A stretch of 38,329 bases of DNA from a virus. The notes under the pieces were generated by a model, which was given only the letters and a program-made list of their open reading frames with translations, was not told the DNA's origin and searched no databases. Of this stretch, positions 5,265 through 32,426 are shown one piece after another. A program made the translations under genes and the position numbers. The stretch lies in the UHGV virus genome UHGV-1488451. One strand, 5' to 3'. How positions within the stretch are numbered: position 1 is the first letter of the stretch; each line of letters starts with the position of its first letter.

Positions 5265-6749
5265 TTATTTTCCCTTCATGGTTTGGATTTGCTGTTGAAT
5301 GTTGGCGATGTCGCGCCGGGCGGCGGCGACACCATCCACGAGGGTGAGGTTTTCACCCTTCGAGTTCTGGCCCAACTGCGGCCAGGGGCCAAGCTGACCG
5401 CTGATGTATTCCACTTGTTGGATTAGTCGGTCAAGCTTTTTGTTGGTTTCCTGCGCCGCGACTTTGGCGTCGTTCAGCGCGGCGACTTGCTCATGTCCGA
5501 ATAGGGACACTGGTCCTCCTTTGATTTGGATGTTTGGGTTTGCGGGTGCGGTCGAGTAGGCGTAGCCCTTCGGCAGTATCAGCGAGGCCAGCTGGTCAAG
5601 GCTGATCCAGTAGCCGTATGGGCTGAACCATGAATCCGCTATCCACACGGCACGCCCCTGGTCACCGTCTCGATATCCCATTGCGGCAATGTAGTGGTAC
5701 ACCACGCCCCCGCCATAGGCTGGGGAGACGGAGCCGTACACGCCGCGCGGGTAGTTCGACGGTGGAGCAACGATGTTGCAGATGACACCATGACCAGCTT
5801 TGACTGAGGTTTTGATGTCGTTCCACAGGCGTTCCTGCTGGTCCGCCGTTGGTGGGTCATTAGGCATCTCTACTGACTGGTATTCAGCCCCTGGGATGTG
5901 TTTGTTCAGCACCTTCGGGAAGAACCCAATCCAGTCTGTGCCGTTGACTGTGGTGCCCAGCTCCACAGCGAAATCGCCTTCCGGCTTGAGAACACCGGTG
6001 GCGGCGAACACCACAGTCTGGGTGGATGCGGGCCCGCAATTGTAGTAGGTGTCCTGTACCACGGCCTCACGGCTGTAGGGGATTTCTACTTCTTCACCAG
6101 CCTGGTTGACCAGGGTTTCACCCGCGCCGCCGCCGGTTGAACCTTCAGGAAGCAGTGACTCCCCCAAGGTCAGGCAGAAGTCGAAGCGGCGTTGCCGGTC
6201 GTCGATTCCGTTGGTTCCTCCATTGATCGCGCGGGTTGCGGCTTTGAATCCTTCGTACCGCTGCCAGCCCTCTAGGTTCGGGTCTGCTGCCTGGTCAGCA
6301 AATTCATTGAGCAGTGGCCGAGCCACCACCCAGTACCAAGCAGCAGCCATGAATCCCCACTTCGGGGTGGCCACCAAATCCGGGTCATTCACAAACAGGT
6401 TCGGGTCGCTGGTGATTCCACGATCATGGCACCATCGACCGAACGACCCGTAGTTGTTCCGTCCCGTGAGCTGTATGGGGCCGCGACCATGGAAACGTGC
6501 ACCATCACCAGGGTAGACGTTGCCGAGATCGCCACGGCCCTCATAGTTGCTGGTGAAGTAGTCATACCCGCCAAGTTCCTGCATGAATTGCAGGCCCACG
6601 GACTCATGTCCGATCTGCGCGCACCACATTGCTGCGCGCGCCACGGTCGTGATGTCCGCGAACTTCATGGCTTCATTCATGGGTTGCACAAACGCCGAAT
6701 CGACGTTGGAACCCATTGCTCGGTTAAGTGTTCCTAGGTCCATATTCAC
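5265..6749 (-). CDS. Modular endolysin: N-terminal GH19 glycosidase domain plus central cysteine-peptidase-like domain
   Basis: GH19-like motifs FHGRGPIQLTGRNNYG and KWGFMAAAWYWV; YYNCGPAS with downstream His suggests a papain-like peptidase; likely start ATG 6743 after GAAAGGAG. Confidence 0.8.
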   Translation of the reverse strand: MNMDLGTLNRAMGSNVDSAFVQPMNEAMKFADITTVARAAMWCAQIGHESVGLQFMQELGGYDYFTSNYEGRGDLGNVYPGDGARFHGRGPIQLTGRNNYGSFGRWCHDRGITSDPNLFVNDPDLVATPKWGFMAAAWYWVVARPLLNEFADQAADPNLEGWQRYEGFKAATRAINGGTNGIDDRQRRFDFCLTLGESLLPEGSTGGGAGETLVNQAGEEVEIPYSREAVVQDTYYNCGPASTQTVVFAATGVLKPEGDFAVELGTTVNGTDWIGFFPKVLNKHIPGAEYQSVEMPNDPPTADQQERLWNDIKTSVKAGHGVICNIVAPPSNYPRGVYGSVSPAYGGGVVYHYIAAMGYRDGDQGRAVWIADSWFSPYGYWISLDQLASLILPKGYAYSTAPANPNIQIKGGPVSLFGHEQVAALNDAKVAAQETNKKLDRLIQQVEYISGQLGPWPQLGQNSKGENLTLVDGVAAARRDIANIQQQIQTMKGK

Positions 6750-6772: not shown

Positions 6773-9700
6773 CTACCCGTATTCGATGGGGAGGATGTAG
6801 TTTCCTTCACGACGCACCCATGCGATGGTTTCGCGCAGTACATCGGGGTCCGGTGCGTTGTCCCACGGGTTGTTCCATTCGGATTCACTACCCAGCTCAC
6901 CGGTGAATGTGTCAGTGGTGAGCCAGATTTGCCCAACGTTCGATACGCTGGCACGCTTGAGTACTTGTTTGGCCTGCTCAACATCGTTTACGTTGTGTAC
7001 CGCGTGCCAGAACCTCAGCGGGTTATGCCCTCTGTAGTGCCCAGGACAAATAGTCTCGTCGTCAATGTAGCGTTGCGCGGATTGTTCGAAAGCCATGAGC
7101 GTATCCGCCGCACCCAGCATGCCCTCAACAGTGTTGCCGCCCGGGTTCGCTGTGATGTAGAAGGCGCTTCCGTACTTTTTGCGGAGTTCCTGGTACAGCG
7201 TTACATAGCCTTGCACTTTGTTTGCCTGGTCGCCCCAGCCATTGACAGCCTCATCAAGGAACACACCGTGAATACGGTGACGCCCGTACCAGTCTATGAA
7301 CTGGTCGATCTCCTTGATGATCTCGGAGTGGCTGCGACCGCCCCACTGGGTGAGCACGTAGGCGATGTTGACCATGCCGAGCGCCGCAGTGGTGGTTAGC
7401 GTCAACTCGTAGTCGTTCTCTTTCTTCGTGCCCACACCACTATGAGGGTTGGCGATGAACGGCCCTGCGATCTGCGGATTGTGAAGGTAGTTGGCGGTGA
7501 CGTCGCGCGCGTGCTCAACCGCCTCCCAATATTTAGGCCAAGAATAGGTGACCGGCGCAAGCCTGCGTGCCCCACGCGTCCACAACTGGAATGGGTGAAT
7601 ATGCAAACCAGGGGTAGGCCCCTCGCGGGTTTCCAACGCTTTCAACAAAGGCGAAGCCTCACTAGCCGCCGGAGCAGGCGCGGGCGCGGGAGGAAGTTTC
7701 TTCAACCGCTCATCAACAACCTCACCAGCCAAAACCCGAACACGCTCCTCATCAGGCTTATCAAGAAGCTTCTTCCACTCCTCAATCGTGATGATCATAT
7801 CCGGGCGCGCCGGGTTGAAATTCCCATTGAAGATGAAATCCTTCTTCACAGTGCCTTCCTGGGCGTTGTTACCAATGATGGTGTTGCCGCCAACCTGCTC
7901 CTTCTTCGTTCCCTTGCGCAACACAATCTTCACCATGTGCGCGCAGTCAGCCTTGGGGTTGTCCTGCGCGTAGCTGTTGCCAATGACGGTGCAGCCGATG
8001 GGGTCTTCCAGTGCGACGGCCGCCCAGTCTTTAGGGCCGTCTGCGGGTGGGCGTAGTTGGTTTTCAAGGCCCACGTTCCAGATGTCGTTGCCTTGGATTT
8101 TTGTGCCGTGCCCGGAGCAGGCGATGCCGTGGTTCCAGGTTTCGCCGATGGTGTTGGCCATGACCACGCTGTACCCGCCCACGCTGATTCCGTTGTCCTT
8201 GGACACGGGGAGCATGTTGCCGGTGATGTTCGTGCGGTAGCACTTGATGGTGAAGCCGATAGGCTCGAAAGCGATTGACTGGTTCTCGGCCATGACCACA
8301 CTGTTCCCAGACACGAGGGTGTCTTTCGGTGCGCCCTGAATCAATGTCTCAGGCCGCAAAGCCGGGTCGGTAGTATCACGCCCACCAATGCCCATGCCGC
8401 AGGATGCGCGGCGAATCTGGTTGCCAATGATCTGGTTGCGGTTCGACTCGTCTTTGATCATGATGCCGAACCCGGATGCACCCTCCTGCGCCGTGTTCTG
8501 CTTCAAACCGCTACCATCAGTCCAGCAGTTCAGAACCAGGGAATCGTTCGTTCCGTTGCCGGTTGGCTTCTCTTTCCGCACAAACCCCTGCAAAAGGAAC
8601 GCATTTGCGCCGGAGTTCATGACCCCGATCTGAACCATCTTCACGTAATCAGCGTTCGTGATCTGCAGCGCCGTGGCAGGCCGCTCACCCGTCACCCAGT
8701 CCATGTCGATAACAAACCCGGACATGTAGCCGCGCCGCAGATTGCCGCCACTGGTTGACTGCATGGCGTTCTTCCCGACGCCGCGTTTCATCTTCAACAC
8801 CGTGGCGTCACCCTGCCCCATCATGACCTTGCCGGAAAGCTTGTCGAGGTTAATCGTGTTCGACAACCCCCACTCACCAGCAGGCAACTGGATTACCTTC
8901 TTCGACGCGTCGTTAATGGCTGCCTGCAAAGCAGTGGTGATGTCAGTGCCCTCGGCTGGTTTGACGTTGATGACACCAGCATCACCTGCGGCTGTGACGA
9001 TTTCCTTGATCTGGGTTTCCACCAGCTTCGTAACAGCCTTGTTGACTTCCTCGGAGATCTTGTTTCCAACTGCCTGCTGGATAGCCTCAGGTGTGGGGGC
9101 CGCGCCACCGCCGCCTTGCGGGTGTTGCCGGAAGTATTCTTCCACGGCCTTGCCGATTTTCTCCGGGTCAACGCCTTCGCCTGCGGGGAGCTTCCCGATT
9201 TGCCTAGTGATCTCGTCACGCACCAGGCCGCTGAGGTCGTTCATTGCCTGCTGCACAGCGTCCTGGGAGGCTGCGCTTGCGGCTTGTTTCGCCTGGTTGA
9301 CGGCTTCGCGTGCTTCGTCTCGTGCGGCGATGGTGTCTTTCTTCACCTGCTCAACCGTGCTTGCCGCCTGCTGTGCTTGGGTGACGGCTTCTTCGGCTTT
9401 GCGTTTGCTTTCCGACGCGGCGGTGGCTGCCTGCTGCGCTTCACCCACGACAGCGGGCGGGTACTCTGTTTGCGCGCCGATCAGGTTGGCTAGGTTCGCC
9501 TCACCTGATTCAGGCAGTGTCACAGTCCACGAGGTTCCATGCACAGTGCCGCCTTCAAGCGTCACTGTGACAGGCCCGGGGAACATGTCAGGGCTGCGGA
9601 AAACCCCACCGGTGCCTTCCATGTGGATTCGCCGCAGTTCCCGCGTGACCACCGTTCCACCCTCGACACGTTCACCCGATGACTGCAGCACCACATAGCA

Positions 9701-9781
9701 GTCAGGGCCGTCAAAAGGTTGCTTGGTGATGCTCTTCAAATCACCAGTCAAAATAGTCATTAGCACCTTCCTAAAGCGCAT
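6773..9781 (-). CDS. Tail fiber/tailspike protein: coiled-coil stalk, beta-helix (pectate-lyase-like) domain, Pro/Ala linker, C-terminal putative glycoside-hydrolase-like domain
   Basis: 1002 aa; A/Q/E-rich stalk, G/N/S/T-rich beta-helix-like repeats, PPAPAPAPAA linker; likely true start ATG at 9760 after AGGAAGG. Confidence 0.7.
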   Translation of the reverse strand: MRFRKVLMTILTGDLKSITKQPFDGPDCYVVLQSSGERVEGGTVVTRELRRIHMEGTGGVFRSPDMFPGPVTVTLEGGTVHGTSWTVTLPESGEANLANLIGAQTEYPPAVVGEAQQAATAASESKRKAEEAVTQAQQAASTVEQVKKDTIAARDEAREAVNQAKQAASAASQDAVQQAMNDLSGLVRDEITRQIGKLPAGEGVDPEKIGKAVEEYFRQHPQGGGGAAPTPEAIQQAVGNKISEEVNKAVTKLVETQIKEIVTAAGDAGVINVKPAEGTDITTALQAAINDASKKVIQLPAGEWGLSNTINLDKLSGKVMMGQGDATVLKMKRGVGKNAMQSTSGGNLRRGYMSGFVIDMDWVTGERPATALQITNADYVKMVQIGVMNSGANAFLLQGFVRKEKPTGNGTNDSLVLNCWTDGSGLKQNTAQEGASGFGIMIKDESNRNQIIGNQIRRASCGMGIGGRDTTDPALRPETLIQGAPKDTLVSGNSVVMAENQSIAFEPIGFTIKCYRTNITGNMLPVSKDNGISVGGYSVVMANTIGETWNHGIACSGHGTKIQGNDIWNVGLENQLRPPADGPKDWAAVALEDPIGCTVIGNSYAQDNPKADCAHMVKIVLRKGTKKEQVGGNTIIGNNAQEGTVKKDFIFNGNFNPARPDMIITIEEWKKLLDKPDEERVRVLAGEVVDERLKKLPPAPAPAPAASEASPLLKALETREGPTPGLHIHPFQLWTRGARRLAPVTYSWPKYWEAVEHARDVTANYLHNPQIAGPFIANPHSGVGTKKENDYELTLTTTAALGMVNIAYVLTQWGGRSHSEIIKEIDQFIDWYGRHRIHGVFLDEAVNGWGDQANKVQGYVTLYQELRKKYGSAFYITANPGGNTVEGMLGAADTLMAFEQSAQRYIDDETICPGHYRGHNPLRFWHAVHNVNDVEQAKQVLKRASVSNVGQIWLTTDTFTGELGSESEWNNPWDNAPDPDVLRETIAWVRREGNYILPIEYG

Positions 9782-12758: not shown

Positions 12759-13550
12759 TCACCTCCACATCGACGTGAACAATGGGGTCACCATGCCGGT
12801 AGCCCCACCACCAAAAACCCACGTGGCCCTACCACCAGGGGGGATAGGCTGCGGAAACACACGCCCCCGCAACCTACGCCACAAATCCGGGGCGGGCTCA
12901 CCACCAACCGTGATCATTGAGGCTTTAGCCGGGTCAGTGTCCAACACCGCCACCCTGTTACCAGTGTGGGGCAATTCCACCTGCCCCACACCAGGGGCGG
13001 TCACCGTTGTAACCCCGTTGCCCTGCCACCTGACGCGCGGCCACAAAGGCAAATCACCAGGGTTATGAATCACAACCTCCCCAGTGTGGCGGGTAGTTTC
13101 ACCACGCCAACACCCCTCATAGCAGACAACAGGCACATCAACCGTGAACGACCGCAAACCCAACGTGGCGGGAGAAACCCCAGGGTCAGGCACACGGTCT
13201 TTCACCAACAACCTGCACGACAATGCTGTCTTACCGGGCACAACAACCCGCAAAACAGACTCATCAAACGGAGTCACATTCCGCACAAACAACCGCCACG
13301 ACTCCGCAAGCGGAGCATCCTCAGCATGGAAACCCAGTTTCAGGGTGCCCTCCATCTTGTCGATGCTCCACCCAATCGGCGTGGCACCCACCTGTGTTGT
13401 CGTTGCCCTGGTCTTCACGTCAACCTTCGCAGACAATTCAGGTGGCCCCATCAACCACATGCCCCTACGGCCATGCGCATACCGGGTGAGTGCCCACGTC
13501 ACCCCCGCACTATCGTCAAGTGAAACGTTGTACAGGGATTCCATGAACAC
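12759..13550 (-). CDS. Minor tail protein, distal tail (Dit-like) candidate
   Basis: 263 aa; immediately downstream of tape measure. Confidence 0.55.
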   Translation of the reverse strand: MFMESLYNVSLDDSAGVTWALTRYAHGRRGMWLMGPPELSAKVDVKTRATTTQVGATPIGWSIDKMEGTLKLGFHAEDAPLAESWRLFVRNVTPFDESVLRVVVPGKTALSCRLLVKDRVPDPGVSPATLGLRSFTVDVPVVCYEGCWRGETTRHTGEVVIHNPGDLPLWPRVRWQGNGVTTVTAPGVGQVELPHTGNRVAVLDTDPAKASMITVGGEPAPDLWRRLRGRVFPQPIPPGGRATWVFGGGATGMVTPLFTSMWR

Positions 13551-13560
13551 TCACTCCTTG

Positions 13561-16500
13561 CTATGTGAGAACAGTGGGCGCGCCACCAACATGACGCTCA
13601 CCCTTGATCTTTTTCAGGTCTTTGGTGTTCACCTCGACCTTGCCCTCCACAGCCTCCACACGCTGCCGCAGGACTTCCTCACCATCCACGTTCACCACCA
13701 GGGTTAGCTGACCACCATCGCCCTTATCGGCGATTTGTTTCAGCACACCCCACTGGTCGTTAGTGAGAATCGCTTCCGGCTTGCCGGACAGGTTCACCGC
13801 CGCACCCTCATGAGGCAGCACACCGCCCTGGTCATACAGGCGTGTACCACCACGGGCACGCTGACCAGCCCAACCAGCGAGGTTCACCAACCCGTGTGCC
13901 GCGTCGATGTCCTCCATCAGGCTAGCCAAACCACCAAACCCATCATCACCACCATTAAAAGCGGCACCGAGTTCACCCCACGCGGCACCAGCATCAGCGG
14001 CCTTGTTGACAAGGAACTTGGCGCGCTCCTCACCAACAACACCAGCTGTTGCGCCGTACCCGTAGTCGCCACCGTTGAAGGCGGTCGTGAACTCCTCGGC
14101 CACGTTCGCGGCCAGGCTGTTGCGCACCATGCGGCCGAAATTACCGGTGGCGTTCACCAGTGTTTTCGCGTGCGTGTCGCCGATCAGCTGGCCGAGCCCG
14201 CCGAAGCCGTCATCACCGCCGTGGAACGCTGTTGTGAGTTCTTCACGTGCAGCATCCACGGGGTTGATCTGCGGCCCTGTTGGGTTAATGTCCTGCGGGT
14301 TTTCCGGTTTTGCGTCGGCAACTGCGGCTGCGGCACCATCAACCCCGGAAGCAGCGGTGTTAGAATCGCCTGCCTGTTTGGCCTGCTCTTCTTCCTTCTT
14401 CTTCTGGTCGCGGGTGAACCAATCCGGTACAGGCGCAAGCTTGTCCGGTGGGGTTGTGGCCAGCTTCTTGATCAGGCCGTTTCCGCCGCCGATGAACTCG
14501 AAGAACGCGTCTTGTGCAAGTGCGTCCGGGGACTTGTTGCCAAGGGTTTTCCAGAACACTTCGTTGGCGATGCCAGCGCCGTAGGCCCCGGCGTCTTGCC
14601 AGCGTTTTACTTCGTTCTGGGCGTTGACGATTCCTTGGTGTGCGGCTAGTGCCGCGACTACTGCGGGGTGGTCTTCTTCGAGGTGGGTTGCGTCTGCGCC
14701 GAGGTATTCGCCGGTGTTGATGACGTGCATGAGTGCGTCTGCGGCTTGTTTCCAGGCTGCGGGGCCTTTGTTGCCGAGTTCGACGAGGGCTGGGATTGCG
14801 TTTCGGAGGTCTCCGAAGTTGCGTTCCAGCATGTCCCACTGTTCAGCGGTTAGGACAGCCTCTGGCTTTCCTGTGTGGTTCCAGTAGGTGCCGAACCCTC
14901 CTGGGGTGGGTTTGAGCCAGCCGCCGGAATCGTAGCCATGTCCATGACCCCACATTGTGGTCAAATCAGTGCCGTACCTGCTCTTGTAGTAGCGGAGCGC
15001 GGCGTTCATATTGGCCCACGGGTCACGCCTATCGTTCGGCAATTCGGGGTCACGGTTGGCTGCGAATGTGCCGGGGATGATCTGCAGCAAGCCAACGCCC
15101 GCACTGTCGCCAGTTCCGTTGACGTCGACAATCTGCTGTGCAATACCCGGGTTGCCACCAGACTCAGACTGAATCTGGGCCAGCATGGCGTTGACCTGCG
15201 CCGGGTCATCAGCATTAAAGCCTTGACGACGCATCGCGGCCATTGCCATTTCGCGCCACGACTCGGCATTACCAGCCACACCAGCGGCACCGGAGAAGGT
15301 GCCCACCTTCGACTTGATAAAGTCCCAAGCCTTGTCAGCGAGGGTTTTAGCGATAGCTCCGGGGAGCTTGCCGAAGTCGCCGTGCTGCTCCTTGCCTGGG
15401 AAGTCGCCGATCTTATTGATCGCCGCGTCCCACAGGCCCTTGACCATTGCTCCGAGGTTGAAGCCGCCACCGCCACCAGCGCCACCTGAAATGAACTCCC
15501 CAAGGAACTCCTTCAAAGTGTAGGTGTGGTTGAACAGGCTGTTATCGGAGCCACGTGCCGCACCGCCGATCTGCACGCCGTGATCGCCCGCCGATTCCAA
15601 GTTAACCCCGTCGATAGTGCCCGCCATGTGGCCGTTCTCGCCGCCGCCTTTGCCGGACAGCACGCCAATGGTCACGCGGCCAGACAAGCCGGGGACGAAC
15701 CCGAAGTTACCAAAGTTACTTTCGGTGTTGAAGATACGTCCTGCGCGCAGCGAACCGCCGTTCAGGAACTGCGTAATGCCTGACCACAGGCCCGAGCAAT
15801 CCCAGCTGGGGTTGCCGGTGCCCCCATACTGATAGGGCTTGCCGTGCTCAGATTTGAGTTCATTGAACAAGGCCGCAATGCGCTCAGTCAGGTGATCGCG
15901 CTGATCAGTGCCGCCATTAGGGAACACGCCGCCCTTAGCGAACGCAAGGGCACGGTACACGCCGCCGCGCGCGAACGCGGCACCCTCACCCAGCATCTTC
16001 TTGACGCGGCTCACGCCACCACCAATGGCGGCTTTGTTCAGCGCATCAACAGCAGGCTTACCGCCCATAGCCTTAGTGACCTCTGGGCGCATGATCGCCT
16101 CACCGCCGGACAAGCCAAGCAGCCCGCCAGTGGGGCTGTAGAAATGGTGAATATCCTTACCAGGACTGTAACCAGGCAGGACACCACCGGTTGCGAAATG
16201 ATGCTCTGGGAGTTCACCAAGGCCAACCAGCTTGGCCACCGTGTTCCAGGCTTTCCTGATGCCACCGTTGTAGACCGTGTTGACCACGAACTCAACAGGT
16301 TTTTTCGTCTTGTCCTTGATGCCGTCCCAGATGCGGCCGATATTATCGACGGTCTGACTGAACCAGTCTTTGACTTTCGTCAACCCGTCTTTCAGCCCGT
16401 TGAACACCGGGTGCACCACATTATCAGCAACCCAGCGTATGCCGTTGCCGAGGGCTTCCCACGTTGGTTTGATGTAGCCGTTCCAGATGCTGGAGAAGAA

Positions 16501-28943: not shown

Positions 28944-29232
28944 CGGCCGCCTTCATACGCTCCATCACCGAAACAACCGCCACAGGGCGGTCACGGTCCT
29001 CAGGAATTCCCCGCGCCTCCGGCGTGCACCCCAACGCCCCCAACGCCTTCAACAAATGAGGCCCCAAATACAACGCCTTTGTGCGGTCATACCCAGCATC
29101 AACAGGCACGAAATCAATCTGCCGAGCATACGACAGCGCCAGCTCCTGCAATGCCTTATCTGCACCGGTGACGTTCTCGCCACGCGCCTCAATTGAATCA
29201 AGTACAGCCTGTTCAAGCGGCCCAACAGTCAT
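28924..29232 (-). CDS. Putative terminase small subunit
   Basis: About 103 aa from ATG 29232 (GGAAGGAG upstream); overlaps start of large terminase; assignment by position only. Confidence 0.4.
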   Translation of the reverse strand: MTVGPLEQAVLDSIEARGENVTGADKALQELALSYARQIDFVPVDAGYDRTKALYLGPHLLKALGALGCTPEARGIPEDRDRPVAVVSVMERMKAAGGGRAG

Positions 29233-29364
29233 GATTAAAGCTCCTTCCAGAAACCAGGTCTTGCGCGCGCGATACCCCCAAAAACGAGTGGGGGGAGAGG
29301 ACAGGCCCACCCGGCTCAAATGTCCTGGTCAGGTGTGCTGGTGATTTGCTACCCCCTACCGTTG

Positions 29365-29649
29365 TTACCAGGTTTGGCTGGGTTGTCCGAGGGTTGGTTG
29401 GGGTGGTTGGTTGTGGCGTGCGCGGTTGCAGTTGGTGTGTGTTGGTTTGATGTTGTTGGGGTCGTTTTCGAGGTGTGGGTGTGTGCTTGTGGGGTGGATG
29501 TGGTCGAGGTCGCATGCGTTTGGGGTGTGTGGTGGTGCGGTGTAGTCGATTGGTTGGCCGCAGAGGTAGCAGGGGGTGTTGTTTTCTGCGTGTTGTTGGC
29601 GGAGTTGTTGGCGGAGTTTTTTGTTTGCGCGGGTTTCTTTGAATGGCAT
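29365..29649 (-). CDS. HNH endonuclease
   Basis: CYLCGQPIDY...CDLDHIHP...HLENDPNNIKPTHTNCN (two Cys pairs, H-N-H); adjacent to terminase genes. Confidence 0.8.
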   Translation of the reverse strand: MPFKETRANKKLRQQLRQQHAENNTPCYLCGQPIDYTAPPHTPNACDLDHIHPTSTHPHLENDPNNIKPTHTNCNRARHNQPPQPTLGQPSQTW

Positions 29650-29676
29650 GGGGTTTTGGGGGTTGATATGGGTAAA

Positions 29677-29700
29677 CCCCCATGCTTTTTGGCATGGGGG
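29677..29700 (-). terminator. Strong GC hairpin (CCCCCATGC / GCATGGGGG) upstream of HNH gene
   Basis: 9-bp perfect stem, 6-nt loop; only short T-runs flank it, so terminator versus attenuator role is unclear. Confidence 0.3.
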
Positions 29701-29740
29701 TTGTCTGCGACTGAGTTTAGCAGTGTGGTTGCCCGTTTTG

Positions 29741-30310
29741 TCAATGTGACAGTTTTTTATCTATGTCTGTTTGTGAGTATTTGAGTGTGCCGTCGAGGCT
29801 GTGGTGTGCTCTGATGTGTCCTCGTGCTCTCCAGTGGTGGATTTGTTTGCGGGTGATGTTGTGGCCTTGTTGCCATGCGTGGTCGATGGCTTGTTGGATG
29901 GTGAGCCATTGGCCGTGGGGGTTGATGGGTGGTTCGCGGTGGTGGCGTTGGGTGAGGTCTTGTTCGATGGTGCGTAGTCCTTGTTCGATGGTGTCGGGTT
30001 CGGGGTGGTGGTTGATGAGGTGGGTGTTGTGGCTGAGCCAGGTGCACCAGCGTGAGAGTGGTTGGTTGGCTGCGCTGGCTGGGAGGTGGATGTTTGCGTG
30101 TTTGAGGATTTGGTGGATGATGTCGCGGAGTTCGTCTTCGGTGGTGATTTTGTTTTCGAGTTGGGTGAGGTTGAGGGGTGGGCGTGGTCCGGGGGTGGTG
30201 TGGCCTCCTTCTTTGGGGATGGTGGAGTCGATGTGTGTGGGGTGGAGGTCGGTTTCGAGTTCGTGGGTGAGGGTGGCGAGGTTGGTGAGGATTTTGTTGA
30301 TGGTGATCAT
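29741..30310 (-). CDS. Hypothetical protein, possible DNA-binding
   Basis: 189 aa; strongly A+C-biased codons (T/H/N/Q/P-rich protein). Confidence 0.4.
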   Translation of the reverse strand: MITINKILTNLATLTHELETDLHPTHIDSTIPKEGGHTTPGPRPPLNLTQLENKITTEDELRDIIHQILKHANIHLPASAANQPLSRWCTWLSHNTHLINHHPEPDTIEQGLRTIEQDLTQRHHREPPINPHGQWLTIQQAIDHAWQQGHNITRKQIHHWRARGHIRAHHSLDGTLKYSQTDIDKKLSH

Positions 30311-30474
30311 GGTTTGGGTTCTTGGAGTTCTTTGGTGGCTTTGGTGGTGAGGATGATGGAGCCGTAGGTGTCGAAGGCTAGGTATCCGTGGTCGATGAGG
30401 ATGTTGGTCATGGTGTGGTTGATGCGTTTGCCGGAGGCGAAGCGTCGGAGGGCGTTGATGTGGTTGGGGGTCAT
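30307..30474 (-). CDS. Small hypothetical protein
   Basis: ATG at 30474 (MTPNHINALRRF...); the His-rich extension to 30558 in the ORF track is probably compositional artefact. Confidence 0.35.
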   Translation of the reverse strand: MTPNHINALRRFASGKRINHTMTNILIDHGYLAFDTYGSIILTTKATKELQEPKP

Positions 30475-30574
30475 TGGTTTGTGTCTTTCTTGGTGGTGAG
30501 GTGGGTGATTGTTCCGGGGTGGGTGAGGGTGCTTATGGCGGTGGTGATGATGATGCACGCGATGATGGTGAGGG

Positions 30575-31108
30575 TCATTGTTCGTCTTTCTGGATTTCGT
30601 ATCGTTCTTCTTGGTGGTCGCGTTCGAGCCTGTCTGCGCGTTCCCAGTCTGGGAGGGTGTCGTCGTTGGTGTCGTCGTGGGGGTAGGGGTGTGCCATGTG
30701 GGTTTCTTTCTGGGTGAGGTGGATGTGTGCGCCGGGTGTTTCGCCGGGGTGTGCGTAGCGTTTGTGGGTTATCCAGGTTGTGATTTGGCTGTCGTCGTTG
30801 ATTGCTCCTGATTGGGTGAGGGCGTCGCCGAGGGCGCGTTGTAGTTTGTCGAGGTCGGGGGTTTTGGTGTGTGGTTCGGTTTTGTTTTTGAGGCGTTTGG
30901 GGCGGGGGAAGATGAAGATTGCGGTGATGGTGATTGGTCCTTGGATTGGGGGTTTGTGGTTGTGGGTGAGGGTTGCGGTTTGGGTGAGGGCTTTGCGCCA
31001 GGCGGGTAGGTGTTTGCTGGATTCGATACTGCGGCCGCCGCCGATGTAGCGTTTGGAGCCTTGGGGTCTGGGGGTGCCTGGGGTGAAGAATGTGAGCGTT
31101 TGGGTCAT
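30575..31108 (-). CDS. rusA: RusA-like Holliday junction resolvase
   Basis: Motif TPDLDKLQRALGDALTQSGAINDDSQI...K matches the RusA Asp-rich catalytic core. Confidence 0.75.
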   Translation of the reverse strand: MTQTLTFFTPGTPRPQGSKRYIGGGRSIESSKHLPAWRKALTQTATLTHNHKPPIQGPITITAIFIFPRPKRLKNKTEPHTKTPDLDKLQRALGDALTQSGAINDDSQITTWITHKRYAHPGETPGAHIHLTQKETHMAHPYPHDDTNDDTLPDWERADRLERDHQEERYEIQKDEQ

Positions 31109-31238
31109 TGGAACATGCTTTCTATGTGGGGGTGGTGGTTTGTTTTGGGTTGGGGGTGGGTGTTATTTTCGCGCGTGAGGCTTGGGGCGGGTTGGTGGCG
31201 CCTGGTGGCCTGTTGGGCGGAGCGTGGTCACAACAGTC

Positions 31239-32426
31239 TCAAAACGGGGGTTTTGCGGCGTTGGAATTGCCGAACCATACACGACTACCCGCCGAGGGGT
31301 TTTCGGGCGTGTGAGGCGGCAATGAGGGCGGATTTGGGGCATTCTCGTTTCGTCTGGCCGCCCGGAGTTGAGCGTATTCCGGTGGGAGGTCCACCGGCTC
31401 GGGGGGTGTCCGATGGTCGCATTTGCGGGCTACGCTGCGGTTTTCCGGCGAATCCGGGTCGATTCCTCGGGTCGGGACCAGGACAAAACCCCGCTCGTCG
31501 CACCACGGGCAAGCGTCGATTTCGGCGCGTCGTGCCTGCTTGGCTTGGGTTTTCTGGTCCTGGAACCAGCGTCTGGCGGCTGCGCAGGCCCCGCAGGGTG
31601 GCACCTGGTCGCGTGGCAGCCCGGCGTGTTCGCGGCATCGGGGGTCATCCGGCGTGGACCAATCGGCGGGTGTGTCGCCGGTCACGGTTGGGGTGTTGGG
31701 GGGCGGCGCGTCAGCGGCCGCCGAACCCTGGTCGAAACTCGGGGCGGGGGCGTGTGCGCTTGCGCTCTCGCTCGGAAGATTTTCTCTCTTAAGCTCCCCT
31801 TTATTGGTATTGGTCGGGCGCAGGTCCGGGCGCGCGCGTCGCGCGCGAGGAGTGGACATGCGGGTGGCGTCCGGGGTGGACATTTCGGCGTTTTCGCTGG
31901 TAGAGGAAAAATCGCTCGACCTATTCGGATTCATTTCGTTTTCATTTCGATTTCGATTCGCGTTCGATTCGGATTCATTTCGATTTCGATTCGGATTCAT
32001 TTCGCGTTCGGATAGGTCGAGCCTCCCTGTTTCAGTATCGGCGTTGCAGCCCCTCCTGCGGGCCTTTGACTCGCGTTCAATACGGCGTCGATTCGAGCGT
32101 TGTTCGCGGGTCTGCTGATAGTCCCCCCAGTCCCTAAAAGTGAACACGATCACACCATTTTCATTGACTGATTGCGTCCACAACCCCGCATCAACAAGCG
32201 CCTGAATCTGAACCGCGCTCCCCCGCAAAGCCCGCACCTGCTGACGAGGAATCACCCCATCAGTCTCAAATTCAGCGCACCAACTCCCAGCCTTCGCCCA
32301 TAAACCCACCGCAGCATTAGGAAGGGAGGAAATCTTAGGATGCGCATGAAAACGGTCGTCAATCATGAACCAGCTCATTACGCACCGAGTCCAACATTCA
32401 AGCAGACAACACTGATTGACCTGCAC
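31239..32426 (-). CDS. Replication initiation (O-like) protein candidate with internal iteron-encoded low-complexity linker and C-terminal Cys cluster
   Basis: N-terminal folded-looking domain, central NPNRNRNESESNANRNRNENEMNPNR linker encoded by the tandem repeats, C-terminal CGAC...CPWC; start uncertain (32426 GTG, 32378 or 32366 ATG). Confidence 0.5.
   Translation of the reverse strand: MQVNQCCLLECWTRCVMSWFMIDDRFHAHPKISSLPNAAVGLWAKAGSWCAEFETDGVIPRQQVRALRGSAVQIQALVDAGLWTQSVNENGVIVFTFRDWGDYQQTREQRSNRRRIERESKARRRGCNADTETGRLDLSEREMNPNRNRNESESNANRNRNENEMNPNRSSDFSSTSENAEMSTPDATRMSTPRARRARPDLRPTNTNKGELKRENLPSESASAHAPAPSFDQGSAAADAPPPNTPTVTGDTPADWSTPDDPRCREHAGLPRDQVPPCGACAAARRWFQDQKTQAKQARRAEIDACPWCDERGFVLVPTRGIDPDSPENRSVARKCDHRTPPEPVDLPPEYAQLRAARRNENAPNPPSLPPHTPENPSAGSRVWFGNSNAAKPPF
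31914..32020. repeat. Iteron-like array: about 8 tandem copies of an 11-bp unit (nnTTCnnTTCG family) flanked by imperfect inverted repeats; candidate origin of replication
   Basis: Seen directly: GATTCATTTCG / TTTTCATTTCG / ATTTCGATTCG / CGTTCGATTCG ...; 11-bp period; flanks CTCGACCTATTCGGA and TTCGGATAGGTCGAG. Confidence 0.5.

Follow-up and report, generated by a model that had tools for sequence, protein, structure and literature searches.

Tail fibres that bear depolymerases are well known. In phage tailspikes and capsule depolymerases such as 7W1C (Klebsiella K1 lyase), 2X3H (coliphage K5A lyase), K64-1 S2-4, Det7, the CBA120 tailspike proteins (TSPs), Sf6 and HK620, a right-handed beta-helix follows an N-terminal adaptor, and the gene comes last in the tail module. 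Sph3 of Aspergillus fumigatus and A. clavatus (5C5G, 5D6T) is the founding member of glycoside hydrolase family 135 (GH135) and acts as a retaining endo-alpha-1,4-N-acetylgalactosaminidase (PMC10485009, PMC12054363). This fungal enzyme is anchored to a membrane and belongs to the gene cluster for galactosaminogalactan biosynthesis (PMC12054363). The gene analysed here lies on the minus strand of UHGV virus genome UHGV-1488451, a contig of 38,329 bases which, at its full length, is called the window. Its product resembles the tailspikes in the beta-helix, the adaptor and the gene position, and resembles Sph3 in matching the family profile PF12138, in its (beta/alpha)8 barrel and in keeping the equivalents of Asp166, Glu167 and Glu222. 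Unlike the tailspikes, with which it has at most 17% identity and no common catalytic motif, it continues beyond the helix with a flexible tether that bears an extra, unrelated glycosidase domain. While Sph3 belongs to fungal biosynthesis, the GH135 domain here forms the far end of a phage fibre, to which it is tethered.

In the explanation that we consider likely, the protein serves a temperate siphovirus, most likely one on Corynebacterium, as distal fibre or spike, and combines a working GH135 enzyme with a beta-helix glycan module. To date, the only characterised role of GH135 is that of an enzyme in fungal biosynthesis; in this protein it is fused to a phage tail anchor. No paper was found that describes GH135 in phage fibres or as a phage virion enzyme. 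What is new here is that a depolymerase fibre employs, as part of a recurrent cassette of two modules, an enzyme family without an earlier link to virions.

The gene and its C-terminal GH135 domain

The gene is an uninterrupted open reading frame (ORF) of 1002 codons at 6773..9781 on the minus strand; an earlier reading of the sequence alone had described a 1002-aa protein at these positions. The translation start is probably the second ATG (Met8, window position 9760), which gives a protein of 995 aa, because a Shine-Dalgarno site (AGGAAGG) sits 5 nt upstream of this ATG, database records give 995 aa both for P0001, a 97%-identical homologue, and for the identical sequence itself, and residue 1 of all homologues that have only the N-terminal domain in common with the protein aligns to residue 8 of the ORF. 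Residues are given in the 995-aa numbering unless stated otherwise, and adding 7 gives the ORF (1002-aa) numbering. The ORF is conserved and is not a chance one. The protein has 1451 matches at E≤1e-3 in the representative protein library, and its 90% cluster holds 125 member sequences, on contigs of about 38 kb. The plus-strand ORFs overlapping 6773..9781 are without support. All structure models are of monomers; residues 1–693 were modelled together with a mean predicted local distance difference test score (pLDDT) of 87. The features are listed from the N-terminus to the C-terminus.

6773..9760, minus strand: tail-fibre gene in its probable true extent, 995 aa from Met8 plus the TAG stop (maximal ORF to 9781)
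9479..9760, minus strand: N-terminal beta-sandwich, aa 1–94, predicted tail-tip attachment domain (all-beta model, pLDDT ~90)
8987..9478, minus strand: Ala/Gln/Glu-rich helical stalk, aa 95–258, with helices 102–189, 199–212 and 224–258 (DSSP on the model)
7790..8986, minus strand: right-handed parallel beta-helix, aa 259–657, predicted polysaccharide-binding module and candidate depolymerase (at 263–657 in the model, pLDDT mostly >95)
7928..8266, minus strand: polar ladder of the beta-helix, candidate active site, with E499 (8264–8266), D522-N523 (8192–8197), H544 (8129–8131) and K611 (7928–7930)
7574..7789, minus strand: neck and linker, aa 658–729, with two short helices, the PPAPAPAPAA tether (aa 690–699, window 7664–7693) and the lead-in to the barrel
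6776..7573, minus strand: GH135 (Spherulin4/Sph3-like) (beta/alpha)8 barrel, aa 730–995 (Pfam PF12138, model and Foldseek)
7085..7255, minus strand: putative catalytic residues D836 (7253–7255), E837 (7250–7252) and E892 (7085–7087), from the HMMER alignment to Sph3

The C-terminal domain has the profile match, the barrel fold and the acidic residues of GH135. Pfam PF12138 (Spherulin4) matched residues 758–953 with an E-value of 6.8e-25 and a score of 88.4 bits against a cut-off of 30.2, covering profile positions 22–224 of 239. PF12138 corresponds to CAZy GH135, and the PDB sequence matches agree with this, since the sole matches in a sequence search of the PDB were the two A. clavatus Sph3 entries, 5D6T and 5C5G. 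The model of the domain (60-sequence alignment; pLDDT 92.3, predicted template modelling score 0.90) is a barrel of alternating strands and helices. When it was searched against the PDB with Foldseek, 5c5g and 5d6t came first (E 2.6e-12, TM 0.58/0.67), and the next match (E 1e-5) was seven orders of magnitude weaker in E-value. The hydrolase domain of PelA (GH166), Ega3 (GH114) and the GH191 endo-alpha-1,4-galactosaminidases are analogous (beta/alpha)8 enzymes acting on N-acetylgalactosamine (GalNAc) or galactosamine polymers (PMC12054363). None of these was among the top 50 fold matches of the C-terminal domain, which did include Sph3, so the domain was assigned to GH135 rather than to GH166, GH114 or GH191.

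In the HMMER alignment, 'VFLDE' of the query pairs with 'IFFDE' of Sph3 and 'AFEQ' pairs with 'VFEA'. With the 5C5G chain index plus 50 giving the Sph3 numbering, D836, E837 and E892 correspond to Asp166, Glu167 and Glu222, which are the published putative catalytic residues of Sph3 (PMC10485009, PMC12054363). All three are invariant in 60 homologues that are 26–94% identical to the query, and N771, G775, Y801, F834, N872 and G874 are likewise invariant in them. With these acidic residues of Sph3 all aligned and unchanged across the homologues, glycosidase activity of the C-terminal domain is very likely.

Two observations weigh against an active enzyme: the domain is only 17–18% identical to Sph3, and among the GH135 members only fungal ones have been characterised (PMC12054363). 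The low identity would also fit a catalytically dead domain that serves as a lectin-like receptor-binding head, and GH135 is the most distal and the fastest-diverging domain of the protein, as is usual for such heads. Inactivated enzymes usually lose their catalytic positions, whereas three acidic and six further positions are invariant here, and a dead domain is thus very unlikely. An intramolecular chaperone or autoproteolytic domain at the C-terminus was rejected, because the domain folds as a TIM barrel and has the residues of a glycosidase.

The sequence-only reading had proposed a PPAPAPAPAA linker and, after it, a W/Y/H-rich C-terminal domain of about 300 aa with a glycoside-hydrolase-like fold, which would be refuted if structure prediction showed a non-catalytic binding or chaperone domain. 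Structure prediction and Foldseek returned the GH135 barrel, and the non-catalytic outcome did not appear, since the triad is aligned and invariant in the homologues. The enrichment is also real, with 12.9% W/Y/H in residues 731–1002 of the ORF versus 5.9% overall, but the folded part is about 266 aa and reaches about 296 aa only with its lead-in. The linker is present at residues 697–706 of the ORF (aa 690–699). The pLDDT is below 50 at aa 681–693, in keeping with a disordered Pro/Ala tether, and the linker varies in length and sequence among the homologues.

A sibling protein has already been labelled 'Spherulation-specific family 4' by automated annotation. Viral Spherulin4 proteins averaging ~1265 aa were read as sporulation genes in Atacama soil viruses (Hwang et al. 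2021, PMC8269230). Like the present protein, those are large viral proteins with a Spherulin4 domain, and they were taken as auxiliary genes, with no structural or glycosidase role proposed. The same sporulation role for the present gene is suggested by the Pfam family name and by that published reading, but it is extremely unlikely: the sole characterised family member is a glycoside hydrolase, and the domain is fused here to a tail anchor, a stalk and a beta-helix within a tail module.

The beta-helix and its pairing with GH135

The right-handed parallel beta-helix fold of depolymerase tailspikes was found with a high-confidence model and by fold search. A G/N/S/T-rich region typical of such folds had been read from the sequence. 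The depolymerase-like fold holds, but the enrichment is only mild (31.7% in residues 271–690 of the ORF versus 27.6% overall). The helix has a ladder of conserved polar residues. Among 35 homologues with less than 75% mutual identity, E499, D522 and N523 are conserved in 100%, H544 in 88% and K611 in 94–97%. Residues 499, 522 and 544 are spaced 22–23 apart, which is one coil, and each lies immediately ahead of the corresponding strand in its coil. Three coils on, K611 continues this line. Glycosidase beta-helices such as those of GH28 and GH87 use charged residues stacked in this manner. Because of the invariant E499/D522/H544/K611 ladder, catalysis by the beta-helix is plausible but unproven, and its chance is about even.

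Several results weigh against a second enzyme. No CAZy-linked Pfam family of glycoside hydrolases or polysaccharide lyases matched the beta-helix above threshold. Neither the AlgE motif YG[FI]DPH[DE] nor the NTD/DD/RIK motifs of GH28 are present in it, and the non-enzymatic adhesin PfbA is among its top structural neighbours. It shows no catalytic residues that would link it to a characterised family of hydrolases, lyases or epimerases, and the beta-helix cannot be placed in a known enzyme family, because it has no Pfam match and no AlgE or GH28 motif. An AlgE-type epimerase, GH28 and GH87 were each rejected, as the motifs are absent and the sequence similarity is confined to the N-terminal cap. 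The A-module of AlgE4 mannuronan C-5 epimerase (2PYG, 2PYH) is further unlike the fibre in being part of a secreted bacterial enzyme that acts on alginate.

The beta-helix could accordingly be a non-catalytic body for trimerisation or receptor binding, as in PfbA and inactive tailspikes, with GH135 as the sole catalytic module. This one-enzyme arrangement is a substantial possibility, though the less probable one. It is difficult to reconcile with the conservation of the ladder, in which E499 and D522 are fully and H544 and K611 nearly invariant among homologues that are 25–40% identical and occur in very different protein contexts, and with the stacking of the charged residues at one-coil spacing, like the sites of the GH28 and GH87 type. 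Of the two enzymatic modules that the sequence-only reading had put forward, GH135 is now tied to a characterised enzyme family, while the beta-helix, lacking the AlgE and GH28 motifs, stays a candidate.

Many human-associated phages have this pairing of the two modules. When IMG/VR was scanned narrowly, with two patterns, at least 107 contigs with a GH135 relative were obtained, and 80 loci were kept. Both modules are in one reading frame in 46 of the 80 loci, with the beta-helix before GH135 in 25 and GH135 before the beta-helix in 21; the other 34 have GH135 without this beta-helix. Both orders were also found among the retrieved proteins (P0001–P0008 with the beta-helix first; P0009, P0011 and P0205 with GH135 first). 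Fusion in both orders suggests that the modules cooperate on one substrate, rather than descending from a single chance fusion. Each module also occurs alone in many proteins, and the two recombine independently, judging from the identities: P0003 is 87% identical in GH135 versus 54% in the beta-helix, and divergence within the 97% sibling is greatest in GH135 (93% versus 99%). When the gene was compared by megablast with 50,697 phage genome records, no match was found. With tblastn, only partial matches were obtained in the phage genomes, to GH135 in Rothia phage Spartoi, Streptococcus thermophilus phage VA460 and virus Rctr41k, and to the beta-helix in Bacillus phage Finn.

Other members of the two families occur in further combinations. 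The metagenomic protein P0006 (1220 aa) has two tandem GH135 domains after its beta-helix, at residues 665–942 and 980–1194. In P0023 (1969 aa) and P0025 (1002 aa), the beta-helix family is combined with a GH20 hexosaminidase and cadherin repeats, with RTX repeats in P0023 as well. Bacterial proteins with such a GH20 fusion are among the 35 homologues in which the ladder is conserved. The GH20 fusions hint that this beta-helix family may work on hexosamine-containing glycans. Three Corynebacterium durum elements of ~27–36 kb (L005–L007) encode a 602-aa protein with the same beta-helix family; its gene lies between the small terminase (Terminase_7) gene and the one that follows, right where the structural module begins.

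Predicted attachment to the tail and probable host

The N-terminal anchor claimed from the sequence is upheld by family comparison. The domain of aa 1–94 is common to 13 other proteins with different distal parts, and since it is shared in this way, it behaves as a virion adaptor. Its family profile aligns with all 86 residues of the PDB 9D93 chain 'Tail collar spacer, gp6' (E 1.3e-6). This entry is the tail-tip structure of mycobacteriophage Bxb1. It was found by profile search only; a single-sequence PDB search with the N-terminal domain gave no match. These results place the domain among the tail-tip attachment domains that are reused in fibres. The protein is like Bxb1 gp6 in its N-terminal ~92 residues, at the profile level, and the phages are alike in having a Mycobacteriales host, which is a predicted one here. 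Beyond the attachment domain, the protein and Bxb1 gp6 have nothing in common. PHROG tail-fibre families match residues 65–179, and an NCBIfam match to the protein was discarded as a spurious coiled-coil hit.

The stalk that follows was predicted to be helical with a pLDDT of 56–86, and its helix 102–189 has 88 residues. The A/Q/E content is 40.6% in residues 106–270 of the ORF versus 21.3% in the whole protein. A hydrophobic periodicity of 3.5 residues has a power of 41 versus 9±9 in shuffled sequences, exceeding 98.7% of them (p 0.013), and the a/d positions are mostly Ala or Val. The long helix with heptad periodicity agrees with the coiled-coil stalk of the earlier reading, and the stalk is probably a trimeric coiled coil, as far as a monomer model can suggest.

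The gene also occupies the position of a fibre or receptor-binding protein, at the distal end of the tail module and upstream of the lysis genes. It closes the tail module after the tape-measure gene, a Sipho_Gp37-like gene and two small tail genes, and an endolysin gene (GH19 plus C39-like) lies directly downstream. The gene order is kept in sibling metagenome contigs of ~38 kb. The window further encodes a terminase, a portal protein, an HK97-type capsid protein, a tape-measure protein of 2171 aa and an integrase. That the virus is a temperate siphovirus is part of the overall explanation and is held with the same confidence as the whole.

GH135 relatives elsewhere were found in other gene positions, and virion attachment is for this reason not universal for the module. 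The Corynebacterium sp. TAE3-ERU16 prophage (L004, 10001..10975) has a stand-alone GH135 protein of 324 aa with 43% identity to the GH135 domain of the window. Its gene comes immediately after that of the major capsid protein, an unusual site for a glycosidase, and the product may be a decoration of the head or else a free enzyme. An anchorless GH135-beta-helix gene lies between presumed tail tube and chaperone/tape-measure genes in L012 (8001..10250), and another, in L011 (8001..10175), comes after a lysis cassette that interrupts the head-tail genes. In two cultured phages of Gram-positive hosts, the GH135 gene is annotated as 'hypothetical': in Streptococcus phage vB_SthS_VA460 (L013, 5866..7155) it lies between holin and lysin, and in Rothia phage Spartoi, which came from the human oral cavity, it is gp21, between minor tail genes and lysin A (L010, 6725..7813).

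The positions behind the capsid gene, between the genes for tail tube and chaperone, and between those for holin and lysin count against a fibre. They would suit a soluble or lysis-associated matrix-degrading enzyme, or a decoration of the head or neck. For the protein of the window this is unlikely, because the relatives in question are anchorless, while here the module is joined to a long stalk and an N-terminal domain of the Bxb1 tail-tip type. The canonical fibre slot, kept in the sibling phages, and the PHROG tail-fibre matches at the N-terminal region also speak for a tail-tip fibre.

The host is most likely Corynebacterium, because the endolysin, the Gp37-like protein and the nearest homologues of both modules all point there. 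The endolysin is closest to Corynebacterium phage lysins (48–53% identity). The Gp37-like tail protein is closest to those of Corynebacterium phages (40–44%), and nearly all its other matches are in Mycobacteriales phages. In named genomes, the nearest homologues of the beta-helix and GH135 are in prophage-like regions of Corynebacterium durum and Corynebacterium sp. TAE3-ERU16. A genome scan with beta-helix motifs gave no confirmed relative. A second scan, of species-representative genomes, returned GH135 relatives only on two short contigs of metagenome-assembled genomes, labelled Streptococcus oralis (L008) and Cardiobacteriaceae (L009); both may be mis-binned phage contigs and leave the host unsettled. 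A tRNA search found none in the window, hence no tRNA-based clue to an attachment site.

Proposed substrate and neighbouring genes

Taken together, the modules suggest the following arrangement. The N-terminal beta-sandwich would plug the protein into the tail tip. The Ala-rich coiled coil would project ~13 nm from it (88 residues at 1.5 Å) and bear the beta-helix body, and the flexible Pro/Ala tether would hang one GH135 barrel per chain from the end of this body. As an Sph3-type retaining endo-glycosidase, GH135 would use D836/E837 and E892 to cut an alpha-linked, GalNAc-rich surface or matrix polysaccharide. The beta-helix may bind this glycan too, in a groove that E499, D522, H544 and K611 would line, and would probably cleave a second linkage in it. 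With both modules, the virion would tunnel through the outer polysaccharide layer to the cell envelope.

By analogy, the substrate may be a Pel- or galactosaminogalactan-like alpha-GalNAc polymer. A GalNAc-rich substrate is proposed because of Sph3 alone. GalNAc-rich Pel occurs in Gram-positive bacteria including streptococci and bifidobacteria, and Sph3 disperses Pel aggregates of Streptococcus intermedius. Against such a substrate on the predicted host, no literature report of a GalNAc-rich polymer in Corynebacterium was found, and a survey of Gram-positive pel loci names bacilli, clostridia, streptococci and bifidobacteria and not corynebacteria.

The sequence-only reading had taken two enzymatic modules in one fibre to suggest a complex receptor polysaccharide, which stays an inference. 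In its most specific form, the cassette would be a two-enzyme tool against a so far undescribed Pel- or galactosaminogalactan-like heteropolymer of alpha-GalNAc and possibly galactose, each module cutting a different linkage, and this polymer would be present on oral Corynebacterium and on the hosts of the other human-associated phage lineages that bear the cassette. The proposal is, in both parts taken jointly, a tentative one and rather doubtful. If true, the cassette would be a marker of a new phage-receptor class in mycolata and a source of enzymes dispersing GalNAc-rich biofilm matrix.

If the GH135 domain is active, it would provide the first bacterial- or viral-side handle on GH135 specificity and would point to a GalNAc-rich polymer on Corynebacterium. 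It would also supply candidate enzymes against biofilm matrices of the Pel and galactosaminogalactan type, and would correct the sporulation-gene reading of viral Spherulin4 genes.

The remaining observations concern the neighbouring genes and the base composition of the window. The endolysin gene lies at 5265..6749 on the minus strand and encodes 494 aa. In the siblings L001–L003, a different endolysin of 464 aa (M23 peptidase, GH25 and Rv3766_C) is found there, at 13021..14415. As their tail fibre is 97% identical to that of the window, the lysis cassette has been swapped between near-identical phages. The GC skew turns strongly positive (to +0.57) at 29001..32000, and the AT skew at 4–10 kb, where the tail-fibre and lysin genes lie, is opposite in sign to that of the upstream structural genes at 10–28 kb. 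These skew changes may reflect strand switches and module mosaicism.

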